NCBI GenBank assembly: GCA_963668315.1
Contig: OY764216.1
Location: forward strand, 1,312,001-1,376,000
DNA from: Spirochaetia bacterium
GTDB taxonomy: Bacteria > Spirochaetota > Spirochaetia > DSM-2461
Length of the DNA: 64,000 nt
Direction: 5' to 3'
The translations under genes and the position numbers were made by a program. Below the pieces are notes generated by a model that did not search any database, was not told the origin of the DNA, and worked only from the letters and a program-made list of their open reading frames with translations. Shown piece after piece: positions 4,647-42,776 of the stretch (its first letter is position 1; every line of letters begins with the position of its first letter).

Positions 4647-5597
4647 TTGTTTATTTTGGCTAAGAGAGAGGGAAGAGAGTTGCGCCCCGGCTTTACGTCG
4701 AGGTGCAAAAGTGATTTTACGAGAAACAAGGGACTGTATCTTCTGTTCATTCCCGTTCTGGTATATTACATCATATTTCAGTATTGTCCGATGTTCGGTC
4801 TGACAATCGCATTTAAAAACTATACGCCCAGCAGGGGGTTTTTAGACAGTCCCTGGGTGGGGCTCAAGCACTTTGTTGCTTTCTTCAACGATTACTATTT
4901 CGCCCGGGTATTTTTCAATACGATCAGAATCAGTGTGGCCACCCTTGTTTTCGGGTTTCCCATGCCCATCATTCTGGCCCTTCTGATTAATGAGCTCAAG
5001 ACGAAAAGATACTCCCGGATTGTCCAGACCATATCCTACATACCCCATTTTATCTCTGTTGTCGTTGTCATCGGGATCATGGTTCAGCTTACGGCGCGGG
5101 AGGGCGCGGTTACCCAGTTCCTGGCTCTCTTCGGTTTTGAGCCGGTCACCATGCTTAACGAGCCGAAGCTTTTCACGCCCCTGTATGTCTTCTCCTATAA
5201 CTGGCAGACCATAGGCTGGAACTCCATAATCTATCTGTCCGCTCTCATGGCGATTGATATGGAGATGTATGAAGCGGCCATGATTGACGGCGCCGGCAGG
5301 TTCAGGCAGATTCTCAGCATCACTCTGCCCTGTCTTCTGCCCACCATCGTGATTATGCTGATTCTTCAGATCGGCAAGATGTTCAATGTGGGATACGAGA
5401 AAATCCTGCTGATGTACAATCCGCTGACCTATGAGAAGGCCGACGTCATATCCACCTATGTCTACAGGAAGGGGTTGCTTGAGTTCAACTGGAGCTACAG
5501 CGCCGCCGTGGGAATGTTCAACTCCGTGGTGAGTTTCACCCTGGTATTTCTGTCAAATAAGATCAGCCGCCATGTCAGCGGCAACAGTTTGTGGTAG
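4647..5597 (+). CDS. Carbohydrate ABC transporter permease (LplB-like)
   Basis: SPWVGLKHF, YIPHFIS, EAA motif YEAAMIDGAGRF, ADVISTYVY; start uncertain (TTG 4647/4656/4680). Confidence 0.92.
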   Translation: MFILAKREGRELRPGFTSRCKSDFTRNKGLYLLFIPVLVYYIIFQYCPMFGLTIAFKNYTPSRGFLDSPWVGLKHFVAFFNDYYFARVFFNTIRISVATLVFGFPMPIILALLINELKTKRYSRIVQTISYIPHFISVVVVIGIMVQLTAREGAVTQFLALFGFEPVTMLNEPKLFTPLYVFSYNWQTIGWNSIIYLSALMAIDMEMYEAAMIDGAGRFRQILSITLPCLLPTIVIMLILQIGKMFNVGYEKILLMYNPLTYEKADVISTYVYRKGLLEFNWSYSAAVGMFNSVVSFTLVFLSNKISRHVSGNSLW

Positions 5598-5608
5598 GGG
5601 GAGAGACT

Positions 5609-6481
5609 ATGAGAAAGAAGAGATCCGTCGGAGAAATCATCTTCGATAATATAAATATTCTGATAACGGGGCTGCTGGCGCTGATAATACTCCTGCCCCT
5701 TTTGAATATCCTGTTTGCTTCGGTCAGCGATCCCATCATGGTGATGAAGCACCAGGGCCTTTTTCTGAGGCCCTACGGATTCGGCCTGGAGACCTATAAA
5801 TCCGTCCTCAGTAATCCGAACATCATTATCGGGTACCGGAACACCCTGTTTATTGTTCTCGTCGGAACATCCCTTAATGTGATACTGACTCTGATCGGGG
5901 CCTATGTCCTATCCAGGAAGAACGTTCTCTGGAACACCTTCTTTACCCTGATGATCGTGTTTACCATGTATTTCCAGGGGGGGACCATTCCTCTCTATCT
6001 GACCGTTAACGCCATCGGACTGAGCGATTCCATCTGGGCGCTGATCTTTCCCGTGGCCATTAACACATTCAACCTGATTGTGATGAGAACCGCCATGGCC
6101 GCCGTACCGGAGAGCCTCCCCGAATCGGCCATGATGGACGGGGCCGGCCATTTCAGGACCCTGTTTCAGATCATGGCGCCCGTGTGCCAGTCAACCGTCG
6201 CCGTTATCGTTCTTTTTTATGCGGTAACCCACTGGAACGCCTGGTTCCATGCCATGATCTTTCTGCGGCAGAGGACCCTGTTTCCCCTGCAGCTGGTACT
6301 GAGGGAGATCCTGATCCAGGATGACACGACCTTTATGTCCGCCGGTGACGACCTGGGTTTTGTCAGCGATACGATCAAATACACGACGATCGTCGTGGCG
6401 ACGCTGCCCATCCTGTGTATCTATCCGTTCCTTCAGAAATATTTTGTTACGGGCGTCATGATTGGCGCAGTCAAAGGATAG
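5609..6481 (+). CDS. Carbohydrate ABC transporter permease (LplC-like)
   Basis: ESAMMDGAG EAA motif, YAVTHWNAWF, YPFLQKYFVTGVMIGAVKG; ATG 5609 after GGGGAG. Confidence 0.92.
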   Translation: MRKKRSVGEIIFDNINILITGLLALIILLPLLNILFASVSDPIMVMKHQGLFLRPYGFGLETYKSVLSNPNIIIGYRNTLFIVLVGTSLNVILTLIGAYVLSRKNVLWNTFFTLMIVFTMYFQGGTIPLYLTVNAIGLSDSIWALIFPVAINTFNLIVMRTAMAAVPESLPESAMMDGAGHFRTLFQIMAPVCQSTVAVIVLFYAVTHWNAWFHAMIFLRQRTLFPLQLVLREILIQDDTTFMSAGDDLGFVSDTIKYTTIVVATLPILCIYPFLQKYFVTGVMIGAVKG

Positions 6482-6491
6482 GGAGAGAACT

Positions 6492-7490
6492 ATGAGAATC
6501 GCTTACGAAAAAATGAAAAACGAGTTTCTGAGAGTCCTCAGGAAATACGGCTTTAATGAGGATGACGCTCTGCTGGGCGCTGCCCTGTTCACCGACGCCA
6601 GCTGCGACGGCGTCTACACTCACGGGCTGAACCGTTTTCCCAAGTTCATCAAGAGCATCGATAACGGCAGTGTAAACGTAAAGGCGAGGGCTGTCCTCTC
6701 TGAGAAACTGGGGCCTCTGGAACGGTGGGACGGAAAGGGCGGCCCGGGGAATCTTAACGCCCATATCTGCATGAAAAGGGCGATTGAACTGGCCGGAGAA
6801 CATACTCTGGGCTGTGTGGCCCTTTCCAATACGAACCACTGGATGAGGCCCGGGGCCTACGGGCTGATGGCGGCCGAGGCGAACTGCATGGGAATCCTCT
6901 GGACCAATACGGTTCCCAATATGCCTCCCTGGGGGGGCAGCGAGGCCAAGCTGGGGAATAATCCGGTCGTCATCGCCATCCCCCACGGAGAGACTCCGAT
7001 TCTTCTGGATATCGCCATGTCCATGTTTTCCTACGGGAAACTGGAGAAATATGTCCTGGAGGGGCGTAAACTGCCCTTCTACGGGGGATTCGACCGGGAG
7101 GGGAATATGACCGATGATCCCTCGGCCATCCTGGACACCCACAGAACCCTGCCCATCGGCTATTGGAAAGGCTCCGGCCTCTCCCTCGTTCTGGACCTTC
7201 TGGCGGCGACCCTGTCGGGGGGAAGCACCAGCCGGATGGTGGGGACCTACCCCTACGAAACGAATCTTTCCCAGGTTTTCTTTGCGGTTTCCCTGGATAA
7301 GTTCGGCGATAAGGAGAGTCTGACGAGGAATATTTCCGAGACTCTTGCCGATCTTCGCCAGTCGGCCGAACCGGGAGCCCATGAAAAGGTCCATTTTCCC
7401 GGGGAGGGAATGGTCAGAACCAGAGTGGAAAACAGGAAAGAGGGGATTCCCGTGGATGAGAAAATCTGGAATCTTGTCACTTCTTTATAA
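6492..7490 (+). CDS. yiaK: 2,3-diketo-L-gulonate reductase (Ldh_2 family)
   Basis: DGVYTHGLNRFP, NTNHWMRPGAYG, MPPWG...LGNNP, SMFSYGKL, PIGYWKGSGL motifs characteristic of YiaK/DlgD. Confidence 0.85.
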   Translation: MRIAYEKMKNEFLRVLRKYGFNEDDALLGAALFTDASCDGVYTHGLNRFPKFIKSIDNGSVNVKARAVLSEKLGPLERWDGKGGPGNLNAHICMKRAIELAGEHTLGCVALSNTNHWMRPGAYGLMAAEANCMGILWTNTVPNMPPWGGSEAKLGNNPVVIAIPHGETPILLDIAMSMFSYGKLEKYVLEGRKLPFYGGFDREGNMTDDPSAILDTHRTLPIGYWKGSGLSLVLDLLAATLSGGSTSRMVGTYPYETNLSQVFFAVSLDKFGDKESLTRNISETLADLRQSAEPGAHEKVHFPGEGMVRTRVENRKEGIPVDEKIWNLVTSL

Positions 7491-7502
7491 GGCGGGGGAG
7501 TC

Positions 7503-8279
7503 ATGATAAAAACAGGATTGGTGTCGGCCACCTTTAAAAAAGAGCCGGTGACGGAGGTCCTTTCCCTGTGCGGCCAGGCCGGCCTCGGAGCTATCGAATG
7601 GAGCGAGGGGCATCATCTGGAGGCGGGTAATTTCTCCGCCGGGGATGAGCTGAGAAAAGAGACCGAAGAGGCGGGGATCAAGATTGTCGCCCTGGGTTCC
7701 TATTACCGTCTGGGAACGGAAGAGAACAGCCGGGAAGCCTTTGAGAAAAGAATCGTATCGGCAAAGGCTCTCGGTACGGATCTCATAAGAATCTGGGCGG
7801 GCACCGAACCGTCCGCCGCTGTGGACGACGGCTATTTCCACAGGATGGCGGCCGAAGCCGGGGATATCGCCGCCCGGGCGGCGGAAGAGGGGATAAGAAT
7901 AGCCTTCGAGTGGCATAAAAATACCCTGACCGATACGAACGAATCGGCCATGAGGCTGATGGAGTCACTGGAGAACCGGAAGAATGTCTACTGCCTCTGG
8001 CAACCGACGGTGGCCTTGAGTGAGGATGAGAGGGTCCGGGGTATCAAACTGCTGGGTGATCGTCTGGCCAATCTCCATGTCTATCATTGGCAGGAAGGAA
8101 TAAGGCGGCCCCTGGAAGAGGGCCGGGAGAACTGGTCGCGCTATTTTCGTGCGGTAGACGGGGAAGGCGACAGGTATGCCCTGATGGAGTTCGTCATGGA
8201 GGACAGTAAGGAACAGTTCCTTGATGACGCCCGGGTACTGAACAGTTGGATTAATCTATTAAATGACAATAAGGAGTAG
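7503..8279 (+). CDS. Xylose isomerase-like TIM barrel (sugar phosphate isomerase/epimerase family)
   Basis: GLVSATF, IEW, GSYYRLG, IRIWAG, FEWHKNTLTD, NLHVYHW, LMEFV. Confidence 0.8.
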   Translation: MIKTGLVSATFKKEPVTEVLSLCGQAGLGAIEWSEGHHLEAGNFSAGDELRKETEEAGIKIVALGSYYRLGTEENSREAFEKRIVSAKALGTDLIRIWAGTEPSAAVDDGYFHRMAAEAGDIAARAAEEGIRIAFEWHKNTLTDTNESAMRLMESLENRKNVYCLWQPTVALSEDERVRGIKLLGDRLANLHVYHWQEGIRRPLEEGRENWSRYFRAVDGEGDRYALMEFVMEDSKEQFLDDARVLNSWINLLNDNKE

Positions 8280-8284
8280 GAGAA

Positions 8285-9508
8285 TTGGCAGATCTGCATG
8301 TTGAGAAGTTTGATTTAATGAATCCCTTCGTTCTGGCTTCGAGTCCGGCGACTCAGGGAGCAAAGAATGTTCTGAAAATAGCCGAGTGCCGTCCGGGGGC
8401 TATCGTCCTCAGGAATTTCGGACACGGCATGGGGGGAGGAAGCTTTTTTTCTCCCGGCGCCGATGCTTTTTTCAAGGGGGAACAGGCATTCCACAGCCAT
8501 GCCGTGGGAACGCAGCTGCCCGATCCCATCAAAACGCTGGACCAGTACTGCGAAGAGGTGAGAACGATTAAGAAGAGCCTTGATAAGGACATCCGGCTCT
8601 GGGTTTCCGTGGGGCATTACAGCGATATCGTTAAAGGCGGAGATTGGGAAGGGGACTGGAAAAAACAGGCGAAGGAGCTGGTCAACGCCGGCGCCGATGC
8701 TCTGGAACTTCACTTCAACACGCCCGGCATCGCCGTGGCCAAGGACCGTCAGTTCAATTACTACCAGCTGGTGGAATCGTCCACCCGGATGATAAAGAGT
8801 GTCTGCGGAGGTGTTCCCGTCATGGTGAAGCTGGCCATTGAATCGTGCGATTCCCTCACTTCCATGAGAGCCGCTGCGAACGCCGGCGCCGATGCGGTGG
8901 GGCCGACGGCTAGGTGGAAAGGGTTCTACTTTGATCTTGACTGGAAACGCACCCAGGCGAGGCCCGGTTCGGGATACGGGGGAACCCAGGCAAACCCGAT
9001 CGTCTGCTACGCCGTTGCCGATGCCAGAAGCAGGGGGATCGATACCCCCATGTATGCCGGCGGCGGGGTGTTCTCCTATGATCAGGCCCTTCGCATAATC
9101 ATGGCCGGAAGTGAGATGGTTCAGCTCGGAACCGCGGCCTGCAGCGGGGGAGCCAAGGCGTGCCGCCGGATTATCAAGGACTTCTCCTCCTGGATGGATA
9201 AAAAGGGATATGCCGATATGAAGAGCCTGACCGGCGCGGCCCTCGAGCTCTTTAATATGGATGGGGAAACATCCAGAAAAAGGACGAACATGCTGGGCGA
9301 GGCCTATCGTTCGGCCGCCGTATCGGAAGAGTCCTGTACCGGATGCGGGAAGTGCGTGGATGTCTGCTGGCATGAGGGCATCGAGATACGGGGGAAGAAA
9401 GCGGTCAAGCTGGATACCTGTATCGGCTGCGGTTACTGCTTTCAGGTCTGCCCCGTTTCGGCTCTTTCCGTGGATGCGGGAAGTATTCTGGAAGAGGCTT
9501 TGCGCTAG
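8285..9508 (+). CDS. Dihydroorotate/dihydropyrimidine dehydrogenase (PreA)-like FMN TIM barrel with C-terminal 2x[4Fe-4S] domain; substrate probably not a pyrimidine
   Basis: NPFVLASSP, PVMVKL, GGGVFS...IMAGSEMVQLGTA fold motifs; CTGCGKCVDVC and CIGCGYCFQVCP ferredoxin motifs; TTG start after AGGAG. Confidence 0.8.
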   Translation: MADLHVEKFDLMNPFVLASSPATQGAKNVLKIAECRPGAIVLRNFGHGMGGGSFFSPGADAFFKGEQAFHSHAVGTQLPDPIKTLDQYCEEVRTIKKSLDKDIRLWVSVGHYSDIVKGGDWEGDWKKQAKELVNAGADALELHFNTPGIAVAKDRQFNYYQLVESSTRMIKSVCGGVPVMVKLAIESCDSLTSMRAAANAGADAVGPTARWKGFYFDLDWKRTQARPGSGYGGTQANPIVCYAVADARSRGIDTPMYAGGGVFSYDQALRIIMAGSEMVQLGTAACSGGAKACRRIIKDFSSWMDKKGYADMKSLTGAALELFNMDGETSRKRTNMLGEAYRSAAVSEESCTGCGKCVDVCWHEGIEIRGKKAVKLDTCIGCGYCFQVCPVSALSVDAGSILEEALR

Positions 9509-9559
9509 TCATTAACCAGCATGTATAATGCATGCTGGAAACAATAATAGGAGTTTGCA

Positions 9560-11134
9560 ATGAAAAAAATTGTATCGGTTTTCGCATGTTTTCTTCTGAC
9601 TTTAACGGTGGTTAATGCCAACGGTCAGAACGAACAGGCCGGTTCTGCGGAAGGGCAGAAGAGCCTGACCTATTGGGTTCCCCTGAATCCCAATGTATCT
9701 CAGGTCGTTCAGGATTTCGGTGAGACGGAATACGCCAAAGAGTTGATGAGAAAAACGGGGATTAATATCGAATATCAGCATATTTCCGCCGGAAACAACG
9801 CCCAGATCATGGAAGGATTCAACATTCTGATCGCCTCCGGTAACTACCCCGATATCATCGAGTACAAATTCATCGATTACCCGGGCGGTCCCCAGGCTGC
9901 CCTGAATGACAAGGTCATCATCCCCCTGAACGATGTCTTTGAGAAATACAGTCCCAATGTGTCCAAAATCATTAATGATAATCCCGATATCTCCAAGATG
10001 ATCAGCACCAATGACGGGACGTTCTATGTTTATCCCTTTCTGAGAGGGCTTTCCAGCAAGGATAACAAGCTTCTCTTCTCCGAAGGTCTGGTTCTCAGGA
10101 AGGATCTGCTGGATAAGGTCGGGATGGATATCCCCGTCACCCCCGACGACTGGTACAAGGTCCTGACGGCTTTCAGGGATCAGCTGGGAGTCAAGATTCC
10201 CATGACCCTGAGAAAGGATCATGTAAGCCGCGTTCTCTCTCCGGGCTACGACAGCTGGGGCGATTTCTACATCGAGGACGGACAAGTTCATTTCGGGCCG
10301 ATCGAACCGGAAAGAAAGGATTATCTCGAGGGGACACACCGGTGGTATGCCGAGGACCTGCTCGACCATGATTATTTTGCCGTGGACAAGAAAACGCAGG
10401 CCACCAAAGTTCTGAACAACCTGGTGGGTGCCACTTACGCCCCGGGCGGTTCCGGTATAGGCACATGGCTGCCCGCCATGAGAAAAAGCGATCCCGCCGT
10501 CAACCTGATCAGCTGCGCTCCCATGACACCCGATGCGGGGAGACTTTCCAAGTTCTCCAAGATGAACACGATCTACAGCAACAGCGGTTACAGCGCCGCC
10601 ATCAGCACGGCCTGCCGCGATATCGAAACGGCGGCAAAGCTTCTGGATTTCAACTACAGCGAAGAAGGTCATCTGCTGGCCAACTTCGGTATCGAGGGCG
10701 TTTCCTACAACATGGTCAACGGCTATCCGACCTATACGGATATGATCAAGAATAATCCCAACGGCCTTTCCGTCACCCAGGCGATGAGTCTTTATATCCG
10801 GGGACATATTCACGGACCTTTCGTCCAGGATCAGCGGGAGCTCGAACAGTACTACAGCCTTCCTCAGCTTCAGGAAGCCCTGGAGTTATGGACGAAGACC
10901 GACATGGGCGAGCACCTTGTCCCCCCCCTCTCCATCAGCGACGAGGACAGCGACGAACTGGCCAGCATCATGAATAACGTCACCACCTTCATGGAGGAGA
11001 TGGAGTCCAAATTCATCATCGGGGCTCTGGATATTTCCGAGTTTGATTCCTATGTGGATCAGCTGAAAAAATTCGGTATTGAACGGGCCATAGAAATCAA
11101 GCAGAACGCTTACGATACGTACATGAGCAAATAA
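9560..11134 (+). CDS. Carbohydrate ABC transporter solute-binding protein (LplA-like)
   Basis: Signal peptide then NGQNE; IASGNYPDII, RKDLLDKVG...P.TPDDWY.VL.AF, FGIEGVSY, KFIIG. Confidence 0.92.
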   Translation: MKKIVSVFACFLLTLTVVNANGQNEQAGSAEGQKSLTYWVPLNPNVSQVVQDFGETEYAKELMRKTGINIEYQHISAGNNAQIMEGFNILIASGNYPDIIEYKFIDYPGGPQAALNDKVIIPLNDVFEKYSPNVSKIINDNPDISKMISTNDGTFYVYPFLRGLSSKDNKLLFSEGLVLRKDLLDKVGMDIPVTPDDWYKVLTAFRDQLGVKIPMTLRKDHVSRVLSPGYDSWGDFYIEDGQVHFGPIEPERKDYLEGTHRWYAEDLLDHDYFAVDKKTQATKVLNNLVGATYAPGGSGIGTWLPAMRKSDPAVNLISCAPMTPDAGRLSKFSKMNTIYSNSGYSAAISTACRDIETAAKLLDFNYSEEGHLLANFGIEGVSYNMVNGYPTYTDMIKNNPNGLSVTQAMSLYIRGHIHGPFVQDQRELEQYYSLPQLQEALELWTKTDMGEHLVPPLSISDEDSDELASIMNNVTTFMEEMESKFIIGALDISEFDSYVDQLKKFGIERAIEIKQNAYDTYMSK

Positions 11135-11141
11135 AATGATC

Positions 11142-11167
11142 GTTCCCCGGATTTTTCTCCGGGGAAC
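11142..11167 (+). terminator. Stem-loop after SBP gene (mRNA stabiliser or partial terminator)
   Basis: GTTCCCCGGA-TTTTTC-TCCGGGGAAC, perfect 10-bp stem. Confidence 0.6.
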
Positions 11168-11194
11168 TGTTACAGGCATCAAGGGAGTTGAATA

Positions 11195-13222
11195 GTGGAG
11201 GACACGGAAATCCTCATTGGCAGGATAGATCCTAAGATCATCAAGACACTTTGCGGTGGCGATGATAAGTTAAAAAACAGCGACAGTATCGTCGATTCGA
11301 TGATCGGATATCTCAGGGAGAGAGAAACTCCCCGGTATCTTTTCGGAAAGGGAGACGTTTCGTCTTCCGCGGACGAGCTTCTTTTCAAAGAAGCCTCCGA
11401 TGTACTTGAGCATACAATATTCGGGCACAGCTTCAAGGGGGAGATCGATTGGAAATTCAATCCGACGACCGATACCTCGAGGGATAATGAATGGAGCTGG
11501 TCCCTGTTTCGAAATATATACTGGCAGCCTCTGGCCAGAGCCTACGCCGCCACGGGGGAAGACAGATATGTCGAGGAGATCGTGGCCCAGATGGAGAGTT
11601 TCGCTTCCGCCTGGCCGGCCGCCCCTTTTATCGAAGATCTGACGTTTGAGAAGAAATCCCCCTACCCGGGGCATGCCTGGAGAACAATCGAGGCGGGTGT
11701 ACGCATCTATACCACCTGGCTTCCCTGCTTCTTCGTCATTAAGGATTCCCCCGCCTTCGGCCGCAAGGGGTGGACCGTTTTTCTGAACATGATCCATGAT
11801 CACGCCGAATTCCTTCTGTCCCACTACAGCAACCATGACAGATCGAGCAACTGGCTCTCCATGGAATCGAGCGCCCTTCTGCAGCTCGGCATCCTCTTTC
11901 CCGAATTCAAGCGGGCCGAAGAATGGCGGGACGTGGGTTACCGCCGCGTCATGCACGAGATTAAATACTGCTTTGATAACGACGGCATACATATGGAGCG
12001 CACGCCGGTCTACCATCTCGTGGCTTCGATCGCTTTCTTCCAGGCCGTCAGGCTCTGCCGGATCAACGGTCTGGAAGTGCCGCCCTACGCCATGCCCATC
12101 CTGGTCAAAAGCCTGGAGTTCATCGGCGCCCTGGTTAAGCCGGACTTCTCCACTCCCATGATCGGGGACGCGGACCGGGAGGACCTTACCGCCCGGAAGA
12201 GCGATACCTCTCTTTTCGAGGGGATGAATCTCTCCTTTGTTCCCGATGACCTGAATGAGCTGCGCGGTTACTTCCGTCAGATGGCCCTGCTGACCGGCCG
12301 GGAGGATTTTCTCTGGTTCTCCACGGCGGGGAAAGAGGGACGCCCGCCCCTGGAAAGAAATTATAAAATGACCGATGCGGGCATCTATGTCATGAGGACG
12401 GGCTGGAACCGCAACTCCTCCTATTTCCTCTGTCACGGCGTACAGCTGGAACGGGGCGAGAGAAGCACCCATTCCCACAATGATGTGGGACATGTGGAGA
12501 TCTCCCTCCGGGGCGAAGATATTCTCATCGATTCGGGCCGCTACATCTATAACAGCTCCTGCTGGAAGGACTGGCGCAGCTATTTTCTGTCGGCCCGGGC
12601 CCACAACACCCTTTTTGTCGATGACCACGAAATGGGAACCGTCCCGAATGTTTCCCGCGTGCGGGGAGTCAGGACTCACTGCCACTATTTCGAAGAGACC
12701 GAAGAGTATCAGATGATGGATCTTTCCCATAACGGTTATGCCTTCTGCGATGATCCGGTGTTTCACCGCAGAAGAGTCGTCCGTCTGGCCGGCGATATCG
12801 TTATTATCGAAGACCTGATAACGGGCCGGGGCGGTGAAGACCATGACTTCAGGCTCTATTACAACTTCGCTCCCGGGGCACTGAGCCGCAGGGAGGGACA
12901 TGTATGGGAGTATACCGCCGGTTCGGGGAACAAATACCTCTGTGCCGGACTGGGAAATGACGGGATGGAATCCTCCTCCTTGTACGGGAGCGAGGAGCCT
13001 AAGGGAGGCTGGGTCTCCTTCGGATATCCCGTAAGGGAACCGATTCCGCAGCTCTGTTTTTCCGCGGAGAGGAAGGCCCCCTTCTCCTTCGTCACCCTGA
13101 TCGCCCCCGGGGGTACCGCCTGGGACTACAGGAAAGAGGACCACACTCTGGAGGTTACAGGGGAGGACGGCCGGACCCGGTCCGTTCTGTTGAACGGGGA
13201 AAAAATCATCATCAAGAAATAA
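11195..13222 (+). CDS. Heparinase II/III family polysaccharide lyase (PL12-like)
   Basis: WRTIEAGVR, SNWLSME, E.TPVYH, PMIGDAD, HSHND, DSGRYIY, AHNTLFVD, HRRRV motifs; no signal peptide; GTG start. Confidence 0.88.
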   Translation: MEDTEILIGRIDPKIIKTLCGGDDKLKNSDSIVDSMIGYLRERETPRYLFGKGDVSSSADELLFKEASDVLEHTIFGHSFKGEIDWKFNPTTDTSRDNEWSWSLFRNIYWQPLARAYAATGEDRYVEEIVAQMESFASAWPAAPFIEDLTFEKKSPYPGHAWRTIEAGVRIYTTWLPCFFVIKDSPAFGRKGWTVFLNMIHDHAEFLLSHYSNHDRSSNWLSMESSALLQLGILFPEFKRAEEWRDVGYRRVMHEIKYCFDNDGIHMERTPVYHLVASIAFFQAVRLCRINGLEVPPYAMPILVKSLEFIGALVKPDFSTPMIGDADREDLTARKSDTSLFEGMNLSFVPDDLNELRGYFRQMALLTGREDFLWFSTAGKEGRPPLERNYKMTDAGIYVMRTGWNRNSSYFLCHGVQLERGERSTHSHNDVGHVEISLRGEDILIDSGRYIYNSSCWKDWRSYFLSARAHNTLFVDDHEMGTVPNVSRVRGVRTHCHYFEETEEYQMMDLSHNGYAFCDDPVFHRRRVVRLAGDIVIIEDLITGRGGEDHDFRLYYNFAPGALSRREGHVWEYTAGSGNKYLCAGLGNDGMESSSLYGSEEPKGGWVSFGYPVREPIPQLCFSAERKAPFSFVTLIAPGGTAWDYRKEDHTLEVTGEDGRTRSVLLNGEKIIIKK

Positions 13223-13232
13223 GGAGAACCGG

Positions 13233-14012
13233 ATGAAATTTGGAATTTGTGCATCCTTCGAAGATATCAATCGAATTGAGAAAATGGGCTTTGACTATAT
13301 CGAATGCTCCCTGGCCTCTCTGGCCGCCTGTACGGAAGAGGAATTCAAGGCCATTCAGGAGATGGTCTCGGAATCGACTATCAAACCCCGCCGCTTTAAT
13401 CTGCTTCTGCCGAAGACCCTGAGCCTCGTGGGGCCCGGCGCGGCGGAGCCGGGGGAAATCAGGGAATACCTCGTGAAAGCCTTTACCAGGATGAAGACCC
13501 TGGGAGGGGAAGTGGTCGTCTTCGGAAGCGGCAAATGCCGGAATGTTCCCGAAGGGATCTCTTTTCAGGAGTGCTACCGTGATCTTGTCAGGGCGACGAA
13601 ACTGATCGGCCGGGTGGCCGGCTATTACGGAATAACCGTGGCCATTGAACCGCTCAACTGCGGGGAAACGAATATGATCAATTCCGTTGTGGAAGGAGCC
13701 ATGCTTCAGGCCGACGCGGACATGGCGTCGGTTCAGCTGCTGGCGGATTATTTCCATATGGAAAGGGAGGGCGAACCGGTCAGCGCTGTGGTGAAAGCGG
13801 GGAAGCTCGCCCACACCCATATCGCCGTGGGGGAGGGAAGACGGTATCCCCTGGAAGAGACGGAAGAGCTGAAGTCTTTTTTCGCCGCTCTTCATAAAAC
13901 GGGCTATGACGGATGCATGAGCATTGAGGGTAAGACGGAAAACATGGACCAGGACGGTCCCGCCGCCCTCTATCTGCTCCGCAAACTGGATAATGAAGCG
14001 GGAGAGAAATGA
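13233..14012 (+). CDS. Sugar phosphate isomerase/epimerase (D-tagatose 3-epimerase-like TIM barrel)
   Basis: GFDYIE, VVFGSG, IEPLN..E, DYFHM, HTHIA, GYDG.MSIE metal-binding pattern. Confidence 0.85.
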   Translation: MKFGICASFEDINRIEKMGFDYIECSLASLAACTEEEFKAIQEMVSESTIKPRRFNLLLPKTLSLVGPGAAEPGEIREYLVKAFTRMKTLGGEVVVFGSGKCRNVPEGISFQECYRDLVRATKLIGRVAGYYGITVAIEPLNCGETNMINSVVEGAMLQADADMASVQLLADYFHMEREGEPVSAVVKAGKLAHTHIAVGEGRRYPLEETEELKSFFAALHKTGYDGCMSIEGKTENMDQDGPAALYLLRKLDNEAGEK

Positions 14013-15121
14013 TGGATAAAGTAAGAATCGGTATCATCGGCTATGGAAAAATGGGGGCCCAGCACAGCGAGACCCTGTTCAGCGGGAAGGTTCCCAACGG
14101 GATGATAACGGCTGTGGCCGATATCAAGGGGGAGCGGCTGGATCTGGCCCGGGAGAAATACGGTTCCGCCGTCAAATATTTTACCGGCGCGGAAGAGCTG
14201 ATCCGGTCCGGAGAGGTGGACGCTGTCATTCCCACGGTCCCCCATTATCTTCATCCGGAACTGGGGAAGAAGGCCTTTGAGGCGGGACTCCATTACCTGT
14301 GCGAAAAACCGGCCGGGGTCTATACCAACCAGGTTAAGGCCATGAATGCCCAGGCGGCGGAGAGCGGAAAAGTCTTTTCCATCATGTACAATCAGAGAAC
14401 CAATCCCCTCTATATCAAGGCCCGCGAGATGGTTCAGGGCGGAGAGCTGGGCGGGATAATCCGGACTAACTGGATTATCACCAGCTGGTTCCGGGCCGAA
14501 AGCTACTACAGCAGCAGCGACTGGCGCGCCACATGGAGCGGGGAGGGGGGCGGTGTCCTTCTGAATCAGAACCCCCATAATCTGGACCTGTGGCAGTGGA
14601 TCTGCGGAATGCCCTGCCGCATCAAATCGCAGCTTTACTACGGCAAGCACAGAAATATCGAAGTTGAAGATGATGTATACGCCATTGCGGAGTATCCCAA
14701 TGGAGCCACCGGATGCTACATCACCACAATCGCCGATACTCCCGGAACAAATCGCTTGGAGATTACGGGAGATAGGGGTAAACTGGTCATTGAAAACAAC
14801 AGTCTGACCTTCTGGAAGCTGGACGAATCGGCTTCCGAATTCAACAGGCGCTTCACTGGAGAAATCGGTCAACCCAAATCGGAAAAAACAGAGGTCCCCT
14901 GCGAAGGGGAGTATACAAGTCATCGGGGCATTATGGAAAACTTCTGCGATGCCATTCAGACCGGTGCGCCTCTGATCGCGCCCGGAGAGGAGGGGATACT
15001 GGGACTGGAGATATCCAATGCCATCCATCTCTCCGACTGGACCGGGGGAGACTGGGTCGATGTGCCCGTTGACGGAGATCTTTTCCAGCGGCTGCTGAAT
15101 GAGAGAATTGAGAAGAAATAG
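14009..15121 (+). CDS. Gfo/Idh/MocA family NAD(P)-dependent oxidoreductase
   Basis: GIIGYGKMG, PHYLH, CEKP, WRATW.GEGGGVLLNQNPHNLDL, VED. Confidence 0.92.
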   Translation: MMDKVRIGIIGYGKMGAQHSETLFSGKVPNGMITAVADIKGERLDLAREKYGSAVKYFTGAEELIRSGEVDAVIPTVPHYLHPELGKKAFEAGLHYLCEKPAGVYTNQVKAMNAQAAESGKVFSIMYNQRTNPLYIKAREMVQGGELGGIIRTNWIITSWFRAESYYSSSDWRATWSGEGGGVLLNQNPHNLDLWQWICGMPCRIKSQLYYGKHRNIEVEDDVYAIAEYPNGATGCYITTIADTPGTNRLEITGDRGKLVIENNSLTFWKLDESASEFNRRFTGEIGQPKSEKTEVPCEGEYTSHRGIMENFCDAIQTGAPLIAPGEEGILGLEISNAIHLSDWTGGDWVDVPVDGDLFQRLLNERIEKK

Positions 15122-15143
15122 ACGACGGAGAGGGTAGGGTCTT

Positions 15144-17459
15144 ATGGCGGAATCAAGGGGAAGAAATATAAAGAAAAAAGAGATCATGAAGAGATGGGGA
15201 ATCTCCTATATGTCTGTCATACTGATCCCCATGCTCGTTTTTCTCTGCGTTTCCATAAGGAGCAATAATGTGATGAACTCAGAAGTGAGTCACAGCAATG
15301 AGCTTCTTATCCGGACGTTCCGCGAGAAGACCGATTTTCTCCTCAGTAACATTACTTCCCTGACCGAAAGGGTTACCGCCATCTCCTATGTGCGGGAGAT
15401 TCTCTATACGGAAGACAGGAATGAGATAGAGCCCATCGTCATTAATAATGCGATCACCGAGCTGAATCACCTGAAATCCTTTAATTCGGGGAGGGGGGAT
15501 TTCTATCTCTCCTTCCCCCGGCTGAACATCATACTGGACGGGAATACCTACAATACCCCGGAAAACTATTTCGACATCTATCAGTCGGATACGTCATTCA
15601 CCTACAGCGAGTGGAACGGGATTGTAAACAGTACGCACCGAACCTACCGGATAGCCGGGTTTAATGTCGCCTCTCCCACGGATTACCGGGAGAAAATCAT
15701 GATAGTCAGGCCCATCTCATTCATCTCAAGCCAGAACTACGCCAATCTGATACTGGTTCTGGACAGGGATCAGTTTCTCTCACTGCAGGGCATCAATGAT
15801 TCGGAGGAGGTCGTTATCAGCGACAGACTGTTCGGTCTTGTCCTCTTTGACTCCACCTCATCGGTCGGCTCCGACCAGCTCCCCGAATATGTGCTCAAGT
15901 CGGGGGATAAAAACTGGGAAGGCTCCCTCAACACGGATAAGTTGATCGTTTCCGCCATCAACTCCACCGAGAGTAATCTGAAATACGTGATACTGAAAAA
16001 TAAGAAGCAGCTTCTGGGAGAAGTGATACGGCTGCGGAATTTATATATCTTCAGTTTTCTCATAAGCCTTGTCGGAGGGTGCATGCTCGTATGGGGAATG
16101 CTGAGGAAACAGTGGGCCAATTTCGAGAGCGCCATGGATATGGTGAAGGCTCCGTCGGATAAGAAAAACTCCCATGCCAAGCCGATCATCGGCGAGTACC
16201 GCTTCTTTTCTGAAAAAATCGATGACCTCCAGGATACCAATGAGAAGATCGGCTTTCAGCTTAAGGAGAAGAATTCCACTCTGAGGGCCATGATGCTCAG
16301 GGGGCTGATCGATAACAGCGAGGACATTGAGACATACGATACGGAGGAACTGAGGCGTTACGGGATAAAATTCCAGACCGATTCCTACTTCGTCCTTCTC
16401 CTCAGTCTGGAAGGGTCGCCTAAGATCACCTGGAAGGATGCCTGGAACCGTATGGAGAAGTCCGTCCTCGATACGATGTATTCTCAGAATATAATTGTCT
16501 ATCCCTTTAGCGTGAAGGAGATGGCCGGATTTATCGTCAACCCTCCCAAATCCCCCGCGGGGACCTATCCGCTTCTTGAATCGGCCGTTTCGGAGATTAC
16601 CCGCAGGATCGAAGACGGGACGGGATGTACCGTGGACGCTTCCTGCAGCGATCTTTTCGATTCGGTGCGGGAGCTGTCGAAGGCCTATCTCCAGGCGGAA
16701 TATGTGCGGGAGTACAAGGATAAGACGAAGTGCGAAAAGATCGTCTTCTACCATGAAATGCTGGAAATCACCCAGTCTCAGCAGCTATCCTATACGGTTC
16801 AGCAGGAGCTTGCCATCATCGAGAGTCTGAGAAAAGGCGATGAAGAGACAACTCTGGCCCTGATTGATGAAGTGATAAACGCCAATTACGATCTCCATAT
16901 CTCCCCCAGGAAAATGAGGTATCTGCTGTTCAACATCGCCGGTACGATCCTCAAGGTGTACAACCAGAAATATGACTATATCTCCAGCTCCCTGGCCGAG
17001 GTCAATATGCCGTCCATCCTGCAGAGCAACGATTTCGACAAGGTATACCGGGGGATCAGGAAAACCATTTCCGATTTGTGCAATGTGATCATTCTGAATA
17101 ATCAGAAAGAATCGATCGACTCCAAATTCGAGAACAAGATTTACGAGGAAACCCTGGGATTCATCAATGAGAATTATGATGATAAGGCGCTCTGCGTCAC
17201 CAGCATAGCCGATGAGATGGATATGTCCCTGGTCCGGCTCTCTAAAATCTTCAAAAAATATCACGGCTCCTGCATATCGGACTATATAAACCACATCAGG
17301 ATCAATCATGCCAAAAGCCTTCTGTCCGATGGCGACACAATTGAGGCGGCCTCATTTTCCAGCGGATTCGGGAGCGTGCGGACATTTATGAGAGTTTTTA
17401 AAAATAAAGAGGGTATCACCCCCGGAAAATACAGGGACATCACCGTTTCTGAAAAATAG
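15144..17459 (+). CDS. Membrane-anchored AraC family transcriptional regulator (YesS-like)
   Basis: Two TM segments enclosing a sensor region; C-terminal AraC HTH (FINENY...IADEM...LSKIFKK...GFGSVRTFMRVFK..EGITPGKYR). Confidence 0.88.
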   Translation: MAESRGRNIKKKEIMKRWGISYMSVILIPMLVFLCVSIRSNNVMNSEVSHSNELLIRTFREKTDFLLSNITSLTERVTAISYVREILYTEDRNEIEPIVINNAITELNHLKSFNSGRGDFYLSFPRLNIILDGNTYNTPENYFDIYQSDTSFTYSEWNGIVNSTHRTYRIAGFNVASPTDYREKIMIVRPISFISSQNYANLILVLDRDQFLSLQGINDSEEVVISDRLFGLVLFDSTSSVGSDQLPEYVLKSGDKNWEGSLNTDKLIVSAINSTESNLKYVILKNKKQLLGEVIRLRNLYIFSFLISLVGGCMLVWGMLRKQWANFESAMDMVKAPSDKKNSHAKPIIGEYRFFSEKIDDLQDTNEKIGFQLKEKNSTLRAMMLRGLIDNSEDIETYDTEELRRYGIKFQTDSYFVLLLSLEGSPKITWKDAWNRMEKSVLDTMYSQNIIVYPFSVKEMAGFIVNPPKSPAGTYPLLESAVSEITRRIEDGTGCTVDASCSDLFDSVRELSKAYLQAEYVREYKDKTKCEKIVFYHEMLEITQSQQLSYTVQQELAIIESLRKGDEETTLALIDEVINANYDLHISPRKMRYLLFNIAGTILKVYNQKYDYISSSLAEVNMPSILQSNDFDKVYRGIRKTISDLCNVIILNNQKESIDSKFENKIYEETLGFINENYDDKALCVTSIADEMDMSLVRLSKIFKKYHGSCISDYINHIRINHAKSLLSDGDTIEAASFSSGFGSVRTFMRVFKNKEGITPGKYRDITVSEK

Positions 17460-17487
17460 ATTCATGGACATAATAAAGGAGAACACA

Positions 17488-18480
17488 ATGAATACGGCAA
17501 TAATCGGCTGCGGAGCCATTTCCAAAAACCATGGCCAGGCGGTCAATAATCTTGAAGGCGTCACTCTGAGGTACTGCGTTGATACGGATAAGGAGAAGGC
17601 GGACCAGTTCCACGGCAGATTCGGGGGGGAAGCCCTCGGCGGGATTGAGGAACTTCTGGAAAAGGATGATTATGAAGTTGTCCATATCTGCACCCCCCAC
17701 TGGAACCATCACGATCTTGCCATCGAATTTCTGAAGCGGGGTAAGCATGTCTTCTGCGAGAAGCCCATGGCCATCACCGCACGGGAGGCTCAGAAGGTTC
17801 TGGATGTGTCCCGGGAAACGGGGATGAAATACGGCGTCTGTTTTCAGAACCGGATGAATGCTTCCACTGTGAGGGCCAGACAGATCCTGGAGAATAGGGA
17901 GTACGGCGAGATTGTCAGCGCCATGGTTCTTGTCGCCTGGGACAGGCATGGCGATTACTACAGCAAGTCCCCCTGGCGCGGTTCCTTTGTCACCGAAGGA
18001 GGGGGATGCATCATCAACCAGGCGATTCACTCCCTCGATCTGCTGGACTATCTGACGGGGGGTGTGGAAAGCCTGACCGCCTACTGCACGAAACTCCGGG
18101 AGACCGATGATTACGAAGTGGATGACAGCAGTATGATCAACTTCCGTTTGAAGAACGGGGCCGTTGCGGTGGGATACACGACGAACTGCTATCCCATGAG
18201 CAAAATCGCCCAGGTGGAAATCCATTGCGAGAAGGGGACCCTTACGGTTCAGCAGAGCGGTCTTCAGATATTAACGGAAGGAAAAACCGAGTTCTTTGAG
18301 AATGCCGTCGCCGTGGGAGAAAAATCGGAATGGGGATTATCCCACGGACTGGTCATCGATGAGTTCTACCGGTCCATCGGGGAGAACCGGCCCTTCTTTA
18401 TTGACGGGGAGTCGGCCATCCGGGCGGTGAAAATTGTCAATGCCATCCAGAACTCCAAGGGCAACCGGATAAAAATCTGA
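17488..18480 (+). CDS. Gfo/Idh/MocA family oxidoreductase
   Basis: AIIGCGAIS, ICTPHWNH, CEKPMA, WRG....EGGG.IINQAIHSLDL; ATG 17488 after AAGGAG. Confidence 0.92.
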   Translation: MNTAIIGCGAISKNHGQAVNNLEGVTLRYCVDTDKEKADQFHGRFGGEALGGIEELLEKDDYEVVHICTPHWNHHDLAIEFLKRGKHVFCEKPMAITAREAQKVLDVSRETGMKYGVCFQNRMNASTVRARQILENREYGEIVSAMVLVAWDRHGDYYSKSPWRGSFVTEGGGCIINQAIHSLDLLDYLTGGVESLTAYCTKLRETDDYEVDDSSMINFRLKNGAVAVGYTTNCYPMSKIAQVEIHCEKGTLTVQQSGLQILTEGKTEFFENAVAVGEKSEWGLSHGLVIDEFYRSIGENRPFFIDGESAIRAVKIVNAIQNSKGNRIKI

Positions 18481-19673: not shown

Positions 19674-20717
19674 TTAATTATTTATACAGGTGAGATTAAC
19701 GGTAAAACAACTCCCTTCCCCCGGTACGCTTTCGGCCTTCACTGAGCCGCCCGAAAGATCGAGAATCCTCTTCACTATGGAGAGGCCCAGCCCCAGCCCG
19801 GCCGATTTATACACGTTTCTCCCCTTATGGAATTTGGTAAAAATCCTGGCAAGGTCCTCATCGTCTATTCCCATCCCCGTATCTCTTATGGAAAGGGAGC
19901 ACCGGTTTTTTTGTCCCTTCTGGGTTATGGTGACCGAACCGCCCTCGGGGGTGTACTTTATGGCGTTGGAGAGAAGATTGATCCAGACATGTTTCATGAG
20001 CGTCCTGTCCGCTTTCACCTCTACCGGGTAGAGATCGGCGGACAGATCTATGCGCTTCTTCATCCAGAAGGGGGAGAGGAGGATAACACACTCTCTGATC
20101 TGCTCATCAAGCAGATAAATTTCCCTGTCCGACTGGATCTCTGTTGATTCCAGTTTTGTCAGAAGCAGGGAGTTCCGGGAGAGATCCGCCAGTCGTTTCG
20201 ACTCCTCCGAAATCGTCTCTAGATATCCGATCTGTTCCTCCCGGGGGAGATCCTCCCTGAGCAGCAGGGTGGCGAAGCCGTTTATAGACATGATAGGCGT
20301 TTTGAATTCATGGGAAAAATGATTGATGAAATCTTCCCTCAGGGTTTTCGTGCTCTCCAGTTCCCGCTGCATTTTGTTGAAATTCAGAAAAATTTCCTTA
20401 TATGGACCGGCATTGGAAAGGTCCAGCTCTTTTTTGAAATTCCCCTCGCCGACTCTCTTCAGGCCATAGAGAAGGGAGGACATATACTTATAGCTTCTTC
20501 TCTGGGAAATCCAGGTCACGACACCCATGAGGGCTCCGTAGGGAATAATCATGCCCAGAGCATCGTAAAGCTGAAAGTCCGAAGTTCTCCCTTCCCGAAT
20601 GCTGATACTGTACTCAAGGAAAGCAAATACCAGCACGGAGAGGTTCGTTGTTATGAAGGAGAGTAATGAGAGACTTTTCTTTAATTCCCGATACATTCCG
20701 ACCTTGCTATTTTTCAT
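19674..20717 (-). CDS. HAMP-domain sensor histidine kinase (intramembrane-sensing type)
   Basis: Two close TM helices, HAMP, FSHEFKTP, NLLSNAIKYT, DTGMG, GLGLGLSI. Confidence 0.93.
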   Translation of the reverse strand: MKNSKVGMYRELKKSLSLLSFITTNLSVLVFAFLEYSISIREGRTSDFQLYDALGMIIPYGALMGVVTWISQRRSYKYMSSLLYGLKRVGEGNFKKELDLSNAGPYKEIFLNFNKMQRELESTKTLREDFINHFSHEFKTPIMSINGFATLLLREDLPREEQIGYLETISEESKRLADLSRNSLLLTKLESTEIQSDREIYLLDEQIRECVILLSPFWMKKRIDLSADLYPVEVKADRTLMKHVWINLLSNAIKYTPEGGSVTITQKGQKNRCSLSIRDTGMGIDDEDLARIFTKFHKGRNVYKSAGLGLGLSIVKRILDLSGGSVKAESVPGEGSCFTVNLTCINN

Positions 20718-21384
20718 CGAGTATTTCCATCCTATAGCCGATTCCCTTAACCGCTTTCAGCGAAAGCCCGGAAAAGGGACTGATCTTTTTCCTGAGACGG
20801 CTGATCTGGGTTTTCAATGTGTTTTCGCTGCTCTCCGCCGAATAGCCCCAGACAGAATCGAACAGCTGGCTTTTCGTATAGATCCTTCCGGGATAGGACA
20901 GGAACTTGTGAAGCAAATCGAACTCTTTCCTGGGAAGAGTTACAGACTGTTCTCCCATGGATAGGGTGAGGCTCAGGCTGTCCATGGTTAAGTCCCCGTT
21001 TATCACCTGCCGGTCGCCGACCGCCTTCGAACGTTTGAGCAGGGCCTGGACCCGCCAGACGAGTTCGTCAAGTTCAAAGGGTTTCGTCAGGTAATCATCC
21101 GTCCCCAGGGAAAACCCCTGCCTCTTCAGATCAAAATCCTGATTCGCCGTAATCATCAGAATGGGAATGGTCGACCCCGATCCCCTGACTTTCCCGATAA
21201 GCCCGAAGCCGTCCATTCCGGGCATCATGATGTCGGCGATCAGAAGGTCGATCTCCCTTTCGGATATGGTTTGCCAGGCCTCTACCCCGTTGGTGGAGCA
21301 CAAAAGGATATGGCTCTTTGCGAGCTCTCTCTTCATAAGAAATCTTATGTTGTCATCATCTTCCGCTATAAGAATCGTGGCCAT
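20707..21384 (-). CDS. OmpR family response regulator
   Basis: ILIAEDD, DIMMPGMDG, DDYLTKPF, wHTH ending RLRKK...VKGIGYR. Confidence 0.95.
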   Translation of the reverse strand: MATILIAEDDDNIRFLMKRELAKSHILLCSTNGVEAWQTISEREIDLLIADIMMPGMDGFGLIGKVRGSGSTIPILMITANQDFDLKRQGFSLGTDDYLTKPFELDELVWRVQALLKRSKAVGDRQVINGDLTMDSLSLTLSMGEQSVTLPRKEFDLLHKFLSYPGRIYTKSQLFDSVWGYSAESSENTLKTQISRLRKKISPFSGLSLKAVKGIGYRMEILDEK

Positions 21385-21401
21385 GAGATTTCCCTTGCCG
21401 A

Positions 21402-25842: not shown

Positions 25843-25855
25843 CTTAATTCCTCCT

Positions 25856-34254: not shown

Positions 34255-34407
34255 GATGCTTCTCCTGTGAACCTGCTTCGGATATAGTGTTATATATTTG
34301 TAAAACTACCTTTTTGTAAAGTACAATATATTCTAAATATAAATATTTCCCATAAAATATCCTCAATAGCGAGTTGAATGGAAGAAATTTATATAATATG
34401 TAAAAAA

Positions 34408-34439
34408 ATATTGACTTCTGAGAGAAGTCAATATAAGAT
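34408..34439 (+). promoter_or_regulatory. Promoter of the ABC operon overlapped by a perfect 12-bp inverted repeat
   Basis: TTGACT-N17-TAAGAT; ATATTGACTTCT-GAG-AGAAGTCAATAT spans the -35 and spacer. Confidence 0.6.
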
Positions 34440-34642
34440 TGTGCCCATTAAGAATATAATGTTTTATAAGAAAGAATATATTGAAGATAAGCCTTTCTTA
34501 AAATTTCAGACTGATTTCTTTCCTCGATCACAGTCTTGAGGGCTTTTGTTTCAGGGAGCGCCCTTCTGGTGGAATCTCTGTTCTTTATTATTAATGGCAT
34601 CATTAGAAACGTGGTTTCTAAAATAAAAAAAGGGGGCAAAAA

Positions 34643-36601: not shown

Positions 36602-36615
36602 GTTAAGTGAAATAT

Positions 36616-36654
36616 GAGTGTCCTATACCCGGGTTTCCAGGTACGGGGGCACTC
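36616..36654 (+). terminator. Stem-loop between SBP and permease genes
   Basis: GAGTGTCCTATACC ... GGTACGGGGGCACTC imperfect inverted repeat. Confidence 0.5.
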
Positions 36655-36674
36655 ATGGTTTCAAGGAGGTTCAT

Positions 36675-38809: not shown

Positions 38810-38821
38810 CGAGGAAATATT

Positions 38822-40845: not shown

Positions 40846-40866
40846 AAATATGATTAAGGAAAAATA

Positions 40867-41457: not shown

Positions 41458-41472
41458 GCGGGGAGACAGTTA

Positions 41473-42762: not shown

Positions 42763-42776
42763 GAATCTTAAGGTCA

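Follow-up and report, generated by a model that had tools for sequence, protein, structure and literature searches.

A 407-residue flavoprotein, encoded at positions 8285 to 9508 (plus strand) of a 64,000-nucleotide stretch of DNA from a Spirochaetia bacterium (contig OY764216.1, positions 1,312,001 to 1,376,000; the whole stretch is called the window hereafter), has the flavin mononucleotide (FMN) barrel and the two-[4Fe-4S] domain of PreA and dihydropyrimidine dehydrogenase (DPD). In alignments, the residues that bind pyrimidine in DPD are replaced in the flavoprotein by others that are conserved across its homologues, and the gene lies in a sugar-acid cluster together with a predicted lyase. 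We suggest that the flavoprotein may be a ferredoxin-fed ene-reductase acting on a conjugated, carboxylate-bearing intermediate that would arise from the unsaturated uronides of its own cluster, a reading whose chances we put at about even. To our knowledge, nearly all characterised enzymes with the barrel shared by dihydroorotate dehydrogenase (DHOD) and DPD act on pyrimidines, the tRNA dihydrouridine synthases apart. If true, the reading would give this fold a new reaction, coming from a conserved subfamily with a re-lined pocket in a sugar-acid cluster, and would fill in the redox step that is missing when unsaturated uronides made by lyases are broken down without hydrolysis.

Architecture and pyrimidine site of the flavoprotein

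The reading frame opens with a TTG codon preceded 7 nt upstream by GGAG, and the start is sound because homologues begin with MADL at the same position. An overlapping minus-strand reading frame (8315-9373) was considered as a gene and rejected as a shadow of the conserved plus-strand frame. The Pfam family DHO_dh (PF01180) matches residues 86-303 with 42.1 bits against a cut-off of 27, which places the protein in that family, and a whole-genome profile search recovered it again with DHO_dh at 41.6 bits. A ferredoxin-type dicluster domain lies at residues 344-397, and Pfam detects no further domain in the 407 residues. Pfam, a motif scan and the alignments agree on a ferredoxin-like domain (9314-9475, plus strand) with two complete four-cysteine motifs (C351/354/357/361 and C379/382/385/389); these CxxCxxCxxxC motifs, at residues 351-361 and 379-389, occur in no other open reading frame (ORF) of the window. 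An AlphaFold2 model built with 27 family members as input reached a mean predicted local distance difference test score of 86.2 and a predicted template modelling (TM) score of 0.87. Searched with Foldseek, this model matched pig DPD best (E 1.6e-18), followed by lactococcal DHOD B (E ~7e-12; TM-score 0.70-0.73, normalised to the target). Since fold, motif and model evidence agree, the layout of PreA and DPD, in which an FMN barrel is followed by a C-terminal two-[4Fe-4S] domain, is real, as the original prediction made from the DNA letters had held. The NCBIfam model of PreA (NF006183) gives 124.2 bits (E 5.7e-36) against an equivalog cut-off of 335, and that of PyrD (NF005574) gives 79 bits against a cut-off of 269; the protein thus scores far under both curated thresholds.

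In the complex of DPD with 5-fluorouracil (1H7X), the pyrimidine is hydrogen-bonded by N609, N668, S670, N736 and T737, according to the accessible text of PMC10970046, and C671 is described in the accessible text of PMC8097209 as the catalytically essential donor of a proton to C5. Residues 83-285 of the flavoprotein were aligned to residues 616-819 of pig DPD by HMMER, equivalences being counted along the alignment, and a second alignment was made by MAFFT with Escherichia coli PreA taken from the annotated K-12 record. In the DPD alignment, E666, L667, N668, L669, S670, C671 and P672 correspond to E141, L142, H143, F144, N145, T146 and P147, with H143, N145 and T146 replacing N668, S670 and the catalytic C671. 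ELHFNTP (residues 141-147, nucleotides 8705-8725; ELHFNTPG, 8705-8728, plus strand) hence stands for ECNFSCP of PreA and ELNLS(C)P of DPD, and the loss of both Cys and Asn from the ExNxSCP motif, which had been claimed earlier, is seen against either protein. The MAFFT alignment with PreA places R43 and N44 (8411-8416, plus strand) opposite the Lys-Thr (KT) pair of PreA, DPD and DHOD, also as claimed. In both alignments PTAR (P207, T208, A209 and R210; 8903-8914, plus strand) is found where PreA and DPD have AINT or ATNT, in keeping with the exchange already noticed there, and A209 and R210 replace N736 and T737. The residue equivalent to N609 is L78, a less certain placement taken from the MAFFT alignment, and E186 corresponds to N713 in the HMMER alignment. 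The latter also shows K182 at the position of K709, the FMN-anchoring Lys, and the flexible active-site loop kept in its position relative to DPD. Judged by these alignments, all known pyrimidine-hydrogen-bonding side chains and the catalytic Cys are replaced in the flavoprotein, and the Lys on the FMN side is retained.

Conservation, gene cluster and distribution

A word-based search of 5.8 billion proteins yielded 7,999 candidates, which were scored, and 367 hits at E ≤ 1e-5. The best 120 of the 367 homologues are 63-98% identical to the query over 97-100% of its length; ELHFNTPG and RN[FY]GHG are each present in 120/120, PTARWK in 119/120, and the first and second cluster motifs in 119/120 and 117/120. 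An alignment of 27 members has R43, N44, H47, H72, H111, Y112, H143, N145, T146, R155, Y159 and K182 invariant, together with E186, R210, W211, K212, R226, C286 and all eight cluster Cys. Because the replacement motifs are invariant across homologues, the new site is fixed under strong purifying selection rather than decayed. The pocket is now rich in Arg, Lys and His, which would suit an anionic ligand; R43, H143, R210, K212 and R226 are candidates for binding its carboxylate.

When 1.84 billion representatives were searched exhaustively, the subfamily formed one full-length cluster at 50% identity (P0077, 638 bits), the next full-length relatives being P0126 (337 bits, 44% identity) and P0134 (171 bits, 34% identity). 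The nearest 150 clusters supplied 109 full-length representatives. The Cys is kept in at least 56 of these and KT or KS in 85, and the His...Thr pattern and RN are found in just 7 and 5, respectively; the rewiring of the active site is thus unusual within the family. In sister clades at 25-44% identity (P0126, P0134, P0141, P0144 and P0160), the active-site strand has either His...Thr or a Pro variant (ELHLNTP, LHLQTG and ELHLGPT), and PT[AG]R or TGR is present as well. These clades offer hints of a wider family of rewired PreA-like Fe-S flavoproteins beyond the subfamily. A protein atlas offered only generic '4Fe-4S binding' or 'dihydrouracil dehydrogenase' clusters, and several sources label its relatives PreA or dihydroorotate dehydrogenase. 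These database names are very probably wrong, and the misnaming could mislead predictions of microbial fluoropyrimidine metabolism that are based on PreA annotation. A literature search, which left most subscription journals outside its reach, returned no paper on the subfamily or on a flavoprotein in clusters with heparinase-like or GFO/IDH/MocA genes, and nothing on comenic acid in uronide metabolism.

The flavoprotein gene is surrounded by a co-directional run of genes on the plus strand from 4647 to 18480, and its spacing of 5 nt from the upstream TIM-barrel gene and 51 nt from the downstream gene for a solute-binding protein confirms the tight packing between these two that had been described. 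The run begins with two ABC permease genes (4647-5597 and 5591-6481; Pfam and NCBIfam) and a homologue of YiaK, 3-dehydro-L-gulonate 2-dehydrogenase, of the Ldh_2 family (6462-7490; NCBIfam NF009750, 399 bits against a cut-off of 316). The gene directly upstream encodes a xylose-isomerase-like TIM barrel, here TIM_A (7503-8279; Pfam AP_endonuc_2), for which a sequence search of the PDB gave no match. Downstream are the solute-binding protein (9560-11134; Pfam SBP_bac_1), with a signal or lipoprotein leader by its N-terminus, and a heparinase III-like protein of PL12 type (11195-13222; Pfam Hepar_II_III_N and _C; PDB 4mmh, E 2.4e-39), whose N-terminus reads as lacking a signal peptide and which is predicted to be a cytoplasmic lyase. 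A second xylose-isomerase-like TIM barrel, TIM_B (13233-14012; Pfam), matches the 3-keto-D-glucoside 4-epimerase 6wn6 weakly in the PDB. The adjoining GFO/IDH/MocA oxidoreductase GFO_A (14009-15121) is a full-length homologue of the solved glucuronide-3-dehydrogenase of the P2B11 system (8tdi, E 1.9e-96, 326 bits), and the six pocket residues that Nasseri et al. (10.1101/2024.03.25.586180) name for the latter (Asn147, Trp179, Arg181, Tyr185, Asn205 and His209) are all conserved in GFO_A if a numbering offset of 10 applies. An AraC-type regulator (15144-17459; Pfam HTH_18 and HTH_AraC at the C-terminus) and a second GFO/IDH/MocA oxidoreductase, GFO_B (17464-18480; Pfam, with PDB matches to 3q2k and 8tdi), complete the run. 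The regulator is 771 residues long; about 110 residues at its end match the AraC-type helix-turn-helix, and Pfam detects nothing at E ≤ 0.001 in the long stretch before them. The cluster therefore contains two TIM barrels of sugar-isomerase type and a second GFO enzyme, and no glycoside hydrolase.

The absence of a PreT or PyrK partner and of pyrimidine genes from the window, asserted in the original prediction, also stands: a search for the PreT/GltD-type domain (Fer4_20) found none between 1.312 and 1.376 Mb, the four matches of the genome lying at 3.17, 3.20, 3.88 and 4.83 Mb, and Pfam scans of the 46 window ORFs turned up no pyrimidine gene. A CN-hydrolase at 1168-2088 was considered as a link to beta-ureidopropionase and was rejected, being nitrilase-like and syntenic in 0/39 loci. 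Two further gene groups were observed in the window. A separate cluster at 31183-45906 holds a GH38 alpha-mannosidase, an Opp-type ABC importer with two ATPases, an astacin-like peptidase fragment, an MGH1-like glycoside hydrolase and a PfkB kinase. On the minus strand, at 19674-26890, a histidine kinase and an OmpR-type regulator adjoin an RND efflux set that consists of an outer-membrane factor, an AcrB-type pump and a membrane-fusion protein.

Related loci were gathered from two scans. A scan of species-representative genomes gave 31 loci, of which L001-L011 carry full-length relatives and L012 a C-terminal fragment; the other 19 (L013-L031) match in the ferredoxin-like domain only, with 24-43% identity across some 50-110 residues, and are left out of every count. 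A metagenome scan found 154 relatives, and 80 of these loci were kept. The resulting 91 loci were probed by tblastn with the cluster proteins of the window, with E. coli PreT and PreA, and with the PyrD, PyrK-like and amidohydrolase genes of the genome itself, a hit being counted at 30% identity or more over at least 30% of the query, and were dereplicated at 90% flavoprotein identity to 39 clusters. Gene presence was counted in the 21 dereplicated representatives of at least 15 kb. Both permeases and the heparinase III-like protein are present in 21/21 of these long loci, TIM_B and GFO_A in 20/21, the YiaK-like protein, TIM_A and GFO_B in 18/21 each, and the solute-binding protein in 13/21; the AraC regulator is too divergent for the tblastn threshold and shows 20-36% identity in many loci. 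TIM_A is the nearest detected gene upstream of the flavoprotein in 32/39 loci and lies downstream in 2 more. PreT, PyrK, PyrD, PreA and amidohydrolase were detected in 0/39 dereplicated loci, so that a location of the homologues mainly in pyrimidine operons, which would have spoken for ordinary pyrimidine chemistry, is not what is found. An extra GFO/IDH/MocA gene directly follows the flavoprotein in Sphaerochaetaceae-type loci (for example L001:11233-12360); it occurs in 18/39 loci and is absent from the window.

Sphaerochaeta, Treponema, Enterocloster citroniae and Lacrimispora are among the named hosts, as are Clostridia from rumen or digester, and the cluster recurs in human-gut, rumen, hare-gut and bioreactor metagenomes. 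Cultured carriers are Enterocloster citroniae DSM 19261 (L007) and Sphaerochaeta pleomorpha Grapes (P0044), which makes the hypothesis directly testable. A search of 301 genomes of the phylum detected the flavoprotein in its own genome only, and so did a search of 41 genomes, its own and 40 relatives, 24 of them from the same family and 3 of these 24 from the same genus. This patchiness among relatives, set beside 63-72% identity to the proteins of Clostridia and Sphaerochaetaceae, suggests that the cluster as a whole has spread laterally. In a sample of 251 genomes from the family to which Enterocloster citroniae belongs, only two (G340 and G405) carry the flavoprotein, whereas GFO_A relatives occur in 49/251 at E ≤ 1e-60. 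Heparinase III-like proteins are found in 15/251 at E ≤ 1e-30, with the orthologue (54-57% identity) only in G340 and G405 and no more than 25-30% identity in the other 13. Twenty GFO_A loci were taken from this sample; at 4 kb each, they are too short to judge cluster architecture. Because the flavoprotein and the lyase orthologue share the same two genomes, the flavoprotein seems to track the lyase and not general 3-keto-uronide chemistry, in agreement with the presence of the lyase in every long locus.

The genome from which the window comes (96.95% complete) has no match to the GH88 or GH105 families, the hydrolases that normally release unsaturated uronates. It encodes KduI (2 matches), 2-keto-3-deoxy-6-phosphogluconate aldolase and pyruvate:ferredoxin oxidoreductase. 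A canonical PyrD lies elsewhere in the genome (369 bits, cut-off 269). Its neighbour is a PyrK-like gene that reaches 159 bits in its best match, less than the cut-off for that match, and there are two further DHOD-like genes. A second PreA-like protein of 362 residues with an FMN barrel and 2x[4Fe-4S] was also observed near 3.53 Mb (L033:1492-2580), adjoining a gene of the amidohydrolase family; it keeps KT and an AINS motif and wholly lacks the NxSCP loop.

Proposed reaction and alternatives

The four P2B11 enzymes, in the order Iso1-Oxido1-Oxido2-Iso2, cleave alpha- and beta-glucuronides through C3 oxidation, elimination and hydration, according to the accessible text of Nasseri et al. (10.1101/2024.03.25.586180). 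In the pathway that we propose, the lyase would cut an imported acidic oligosaccharide so that its non-reducing end becomes a 4,5-unsaturated uronic acid. Since the genome shows no GH88 or GH105 match, P2B11-type enzymes would be the sole candidates for breaking the glycosidic bond. A C5=C4-C3=O enone would arise when GFO_A oxidises C3, and a TIM-barrel enzyme would eliminate the aglycone across C1-C2; by atom bookkeeping, these two steps together would yield 5-hydroxy-4-oxo-4H-pyran-2-carboxylate (comenic acid). Neither the enone nor the pyrone could presumably be reduced, in the manner of an ordinary 3-keto sugar, by the GFO reductase with which the P2B11 cycle normally closes. In the DHOD/DPD barrel, FMNH2 gives its hydride to the carbon of the ring that is beta to a carbonyl; in orotate this carbon bears the carboxylate, as it would in the intermediates proposed here. 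The flavoprotein would likewise move hydride from FMNH2 to the carboxylate-bearing carbon, with the regiochemistry of orotate or uracil reduction, and electrons would enter singly from reduced ferredoxin through the two Fe-S clusters. The product would be the 2-hydroxy-3-keto-glycal of a 4-deoxy-uronate. Hydration would come next, with the adjacent TIM_A as a candidate; a GFO enzyme would reduce the ketone and in so doing reset its own nicotinamide adenine dinucleotide (NAD); and reduction of the aldehyde, followed by C2 oxidation by the YiaK-like enzyme, would lead to 2-keto-3-deoxygluconate, a 2-keto-3-deoxy-hexonate. Such a route would replace unsaturated-glucuronyl hydrolase and KduI/KduD with the same overall balance, ferredoxin being the reductant. 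Of the neofunctionalised oxidoreductase that had been proposed originally, the loss of the pyrimidine site, the selection on its replacement, the lack of pyrimidine context and the linkage to the lyase have found support; the C=C reaction and the electron donor stay where they were, as proposals.

A more specific version, which we offer tentatively and think unlikely, takes the flavoprotein for a gamma-pyrone carboxylate reductase ('comenate reductase') that would turn a dead-end pyrone into the 2-hydroxy-3-keto-glycal. Comenic acid, whose ring is flat and stabilised, closely resembles orotate as its oxygen isostere and would suit a barrel re-lined with Arg, Lys and His, and a TIM-barrel hydratase, a GFO reductase and the YiaK-like 2-dehydrogenase could carry the product to 2-keto-3-deoxygluconate. 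If this version were true, anaerobes of gut, rumen and digester would have a complete route for unsaturated uronides that needs no hydrolase and is driven by ferredoxin, and the DHOD family would gain a new class of reaction.

Several observations weigh against the ene-reductase reading. Thr146 takes the place of the Cys that donates the proton, and no acid has been identified to stand in for it. A scan of the window ORFs for Fe-S motifs turned up no gene for a ferredoxin or another donor in the cluster, and the flavoprotein has a single ferredoxin-like domain, as against two in the ferredoxin-fed uracil reductase PydAc. The lyase activity of the heparinase III-like protein is itself an assumption, and its link to the flavoprotein in the sample of 251 genomes rests on two genomes that may be kin. 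Three long loci (L042, L043 and L047) lack TIM_A, and a 56% identical relative (L088) lies in a different gene order, GFO_A-HeparIII-flavoprotein-TIM_B. The locus L012, from a Candidatus Poribacteria metagenome-assembled genome (MAG), holds at 2-319 a C-terminal fragment of a 58% identical relative at the contig edge, with different downstream genes. The loci were retrieved by ELHFNTPG, PTARWK and CIGCGYC, which makes motif counts among them circular, and only the 120 hits of the word-based search count for conservation. As a separate observation, the genes downstream in L012 (two NAD epimerase/dehydratase genes, two RraA-like aldolases and a beta-helix protein) are different yet sugar-acid-like.

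Among the other explanations, another redox job in the same pathway is possible, although we doubt it: the flavoprotein could reduce the 2-hydroxy-3-keto-glycal left once the aglycone is eliminated, carry out a flavin-dependent, redox-neutral isomerisation, or let electrons out or in so as to reset the NAD(H) bound tightly to the GFO enzymes. Its linkage to the GFO and TIM-barrel genes is equally tight, and the rate of P2B11 is unaffected by added NAD(P)(H), as the accessible text of 10.1101/2024.03.25.586180 reports, so that cofactor resetting is a real issue. However, neither P2B11-type clusters nor 47 further genomes that carry GFO_A relatives contain the flavoprotein, whose presence tracks the lyase orthologue instead, and a strictly conserved pocket argues for a small-molecule substrate over a pure electron relay. 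It is rather improbable that the flavoprotein works in the oxidative direction, as a dehydrogenase that adds a C=C bond beside the carbonyl or carboxylate of a saturated sugar acid and passes electrons out through its Fe-S clusters. The founding reaction of DHOD is an oxidation, and fold and cofactors are neutral as to direction, but the predicted lyase of the cluster would already make a double bond, the named hosts are fermentative anaerobes (Sphaerochaeta, Treponema, Lachnospiraceae and rumen or digester MAGs), the scan for Fe-S motifs found no acceptor protein encoded nearby in the window, and ferredoxin-type clusters are usually of low potential.

We give very little credit to the simplest alternative, an ordinary if divergent dihydropyrimidine or dihydroorotate dehydrogenase, similar to PydAc, that lies in a sugar cluster by chance. 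PreA is indeed the best family match and DPD and DHOD are the best structural ones, relatives are named after these enzymes, and PydAc is a stand-alone enzyme of PreA type. Against this, all five pyrimidine-hydrogen-bonding side chains and the catalytic Cys are replaced, the scores lie far under the PreA and PyrD cut-offs, no PreT, PyrK, PyrD or amidohydrolase gene accompanies the flavoprotein in any of the 39 dereplicated loci, and the genome has its canonical PyrD with a PyrK-like neighbour elsewhere. No more credible is a catalytically dead, structural or regulatory remnant; the loss of the canonical catalytic Cys and of the Asn triad would fit one, but the replacement residues, the FMN Lys and the eight cluster Cys are invariant or nearly so across the best 120 homologues, and the gene is kept in every cluster variant found, in two phyla.

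Comparison with known systems

PreA, the FMN/Fe-S subunit of bacterial NAD-dependent dihydropyrimidine dehydrogenase, and domains IV-V of mammalian DPD are like the flavoprotein in their FMN TIM barrel, their C-terminal 2x[4Fe-4S] domain and the FMN-binding Lys (K709 of DPD). The flavoprotein is only 21-24% identical to E. coli PreA, has extra insertions at about residues 47-60 and 111-125, lacks a PreT partner and stands in a sugar-acid rather than a pyrimidine context.

PydAc of Clostridium chromiireducens is a PreA-type enzyme of strict anaerobes that has no FAD/NADPH module and is fed by reduced ferredoxin or methyl viologen; it has two ferredoxin domains (four clusters), is encoded in a Pyd gene cluster and reduces uracil, as described in the accessible text of PMC7332683. 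The flavoprotein likewise has no FAD/NADPH module, and PydAc is likely to be the model for how it is fed with electrons. It differs from PydAc, so far as that description goes, in its one ferredoxin domain and in the lack of Pyd neighbours and of pyrimidine-binding residues. By its sequence and gene context, then, the flavoprotein is a member of the DHO_dh superfamily and yet falls outside PreA, PyrD and PydAc as each of these is defined; it may share with them the reverse of the DHOD reaction, applied to a ring that comes from a sugar.

Class 1B DHOD, composed of PyrD and PyrK, has the same barrel, whereas the flavoprotein has no PyrK beside it and has lost the catalytic Cys. In orotate, the DHOD substrate, the six-membered ring is planar and the carbon that takes up the hydride bears a carboxylate; the substrates proposed here for the flavoprotein would resemble orotate in this. 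In anaerobes, clostridial 2-enoate reductases of old yellow enzyme (OYE) type reduce C=C bonds conjugated to a carboxylate with FMN and a [4Fe-4S] cluster. This is a functional analogy only; these enzymes have a different fold (an OYE barrel with an FAD/NAD domain), and none of the searches made revealed a sequence relationship to the flavoprotein.

The closest parallel to the cluster as a whole is P2B11. Both sets comprise two GFO oxidoreductases and two TIM barrels of sugar-isomerase type without a glycoside hydrolase, and GFO_A resembles Oxido1. As P2B11 is described in the accessible text of Nasseri et al. (10.1101/2024.03.25.586180), it includes no lyase, Fe-S flavoprotein or YiaK-like gene and no nearby transporter or regulator, and these are exactly what the cluster in the window has in addition.

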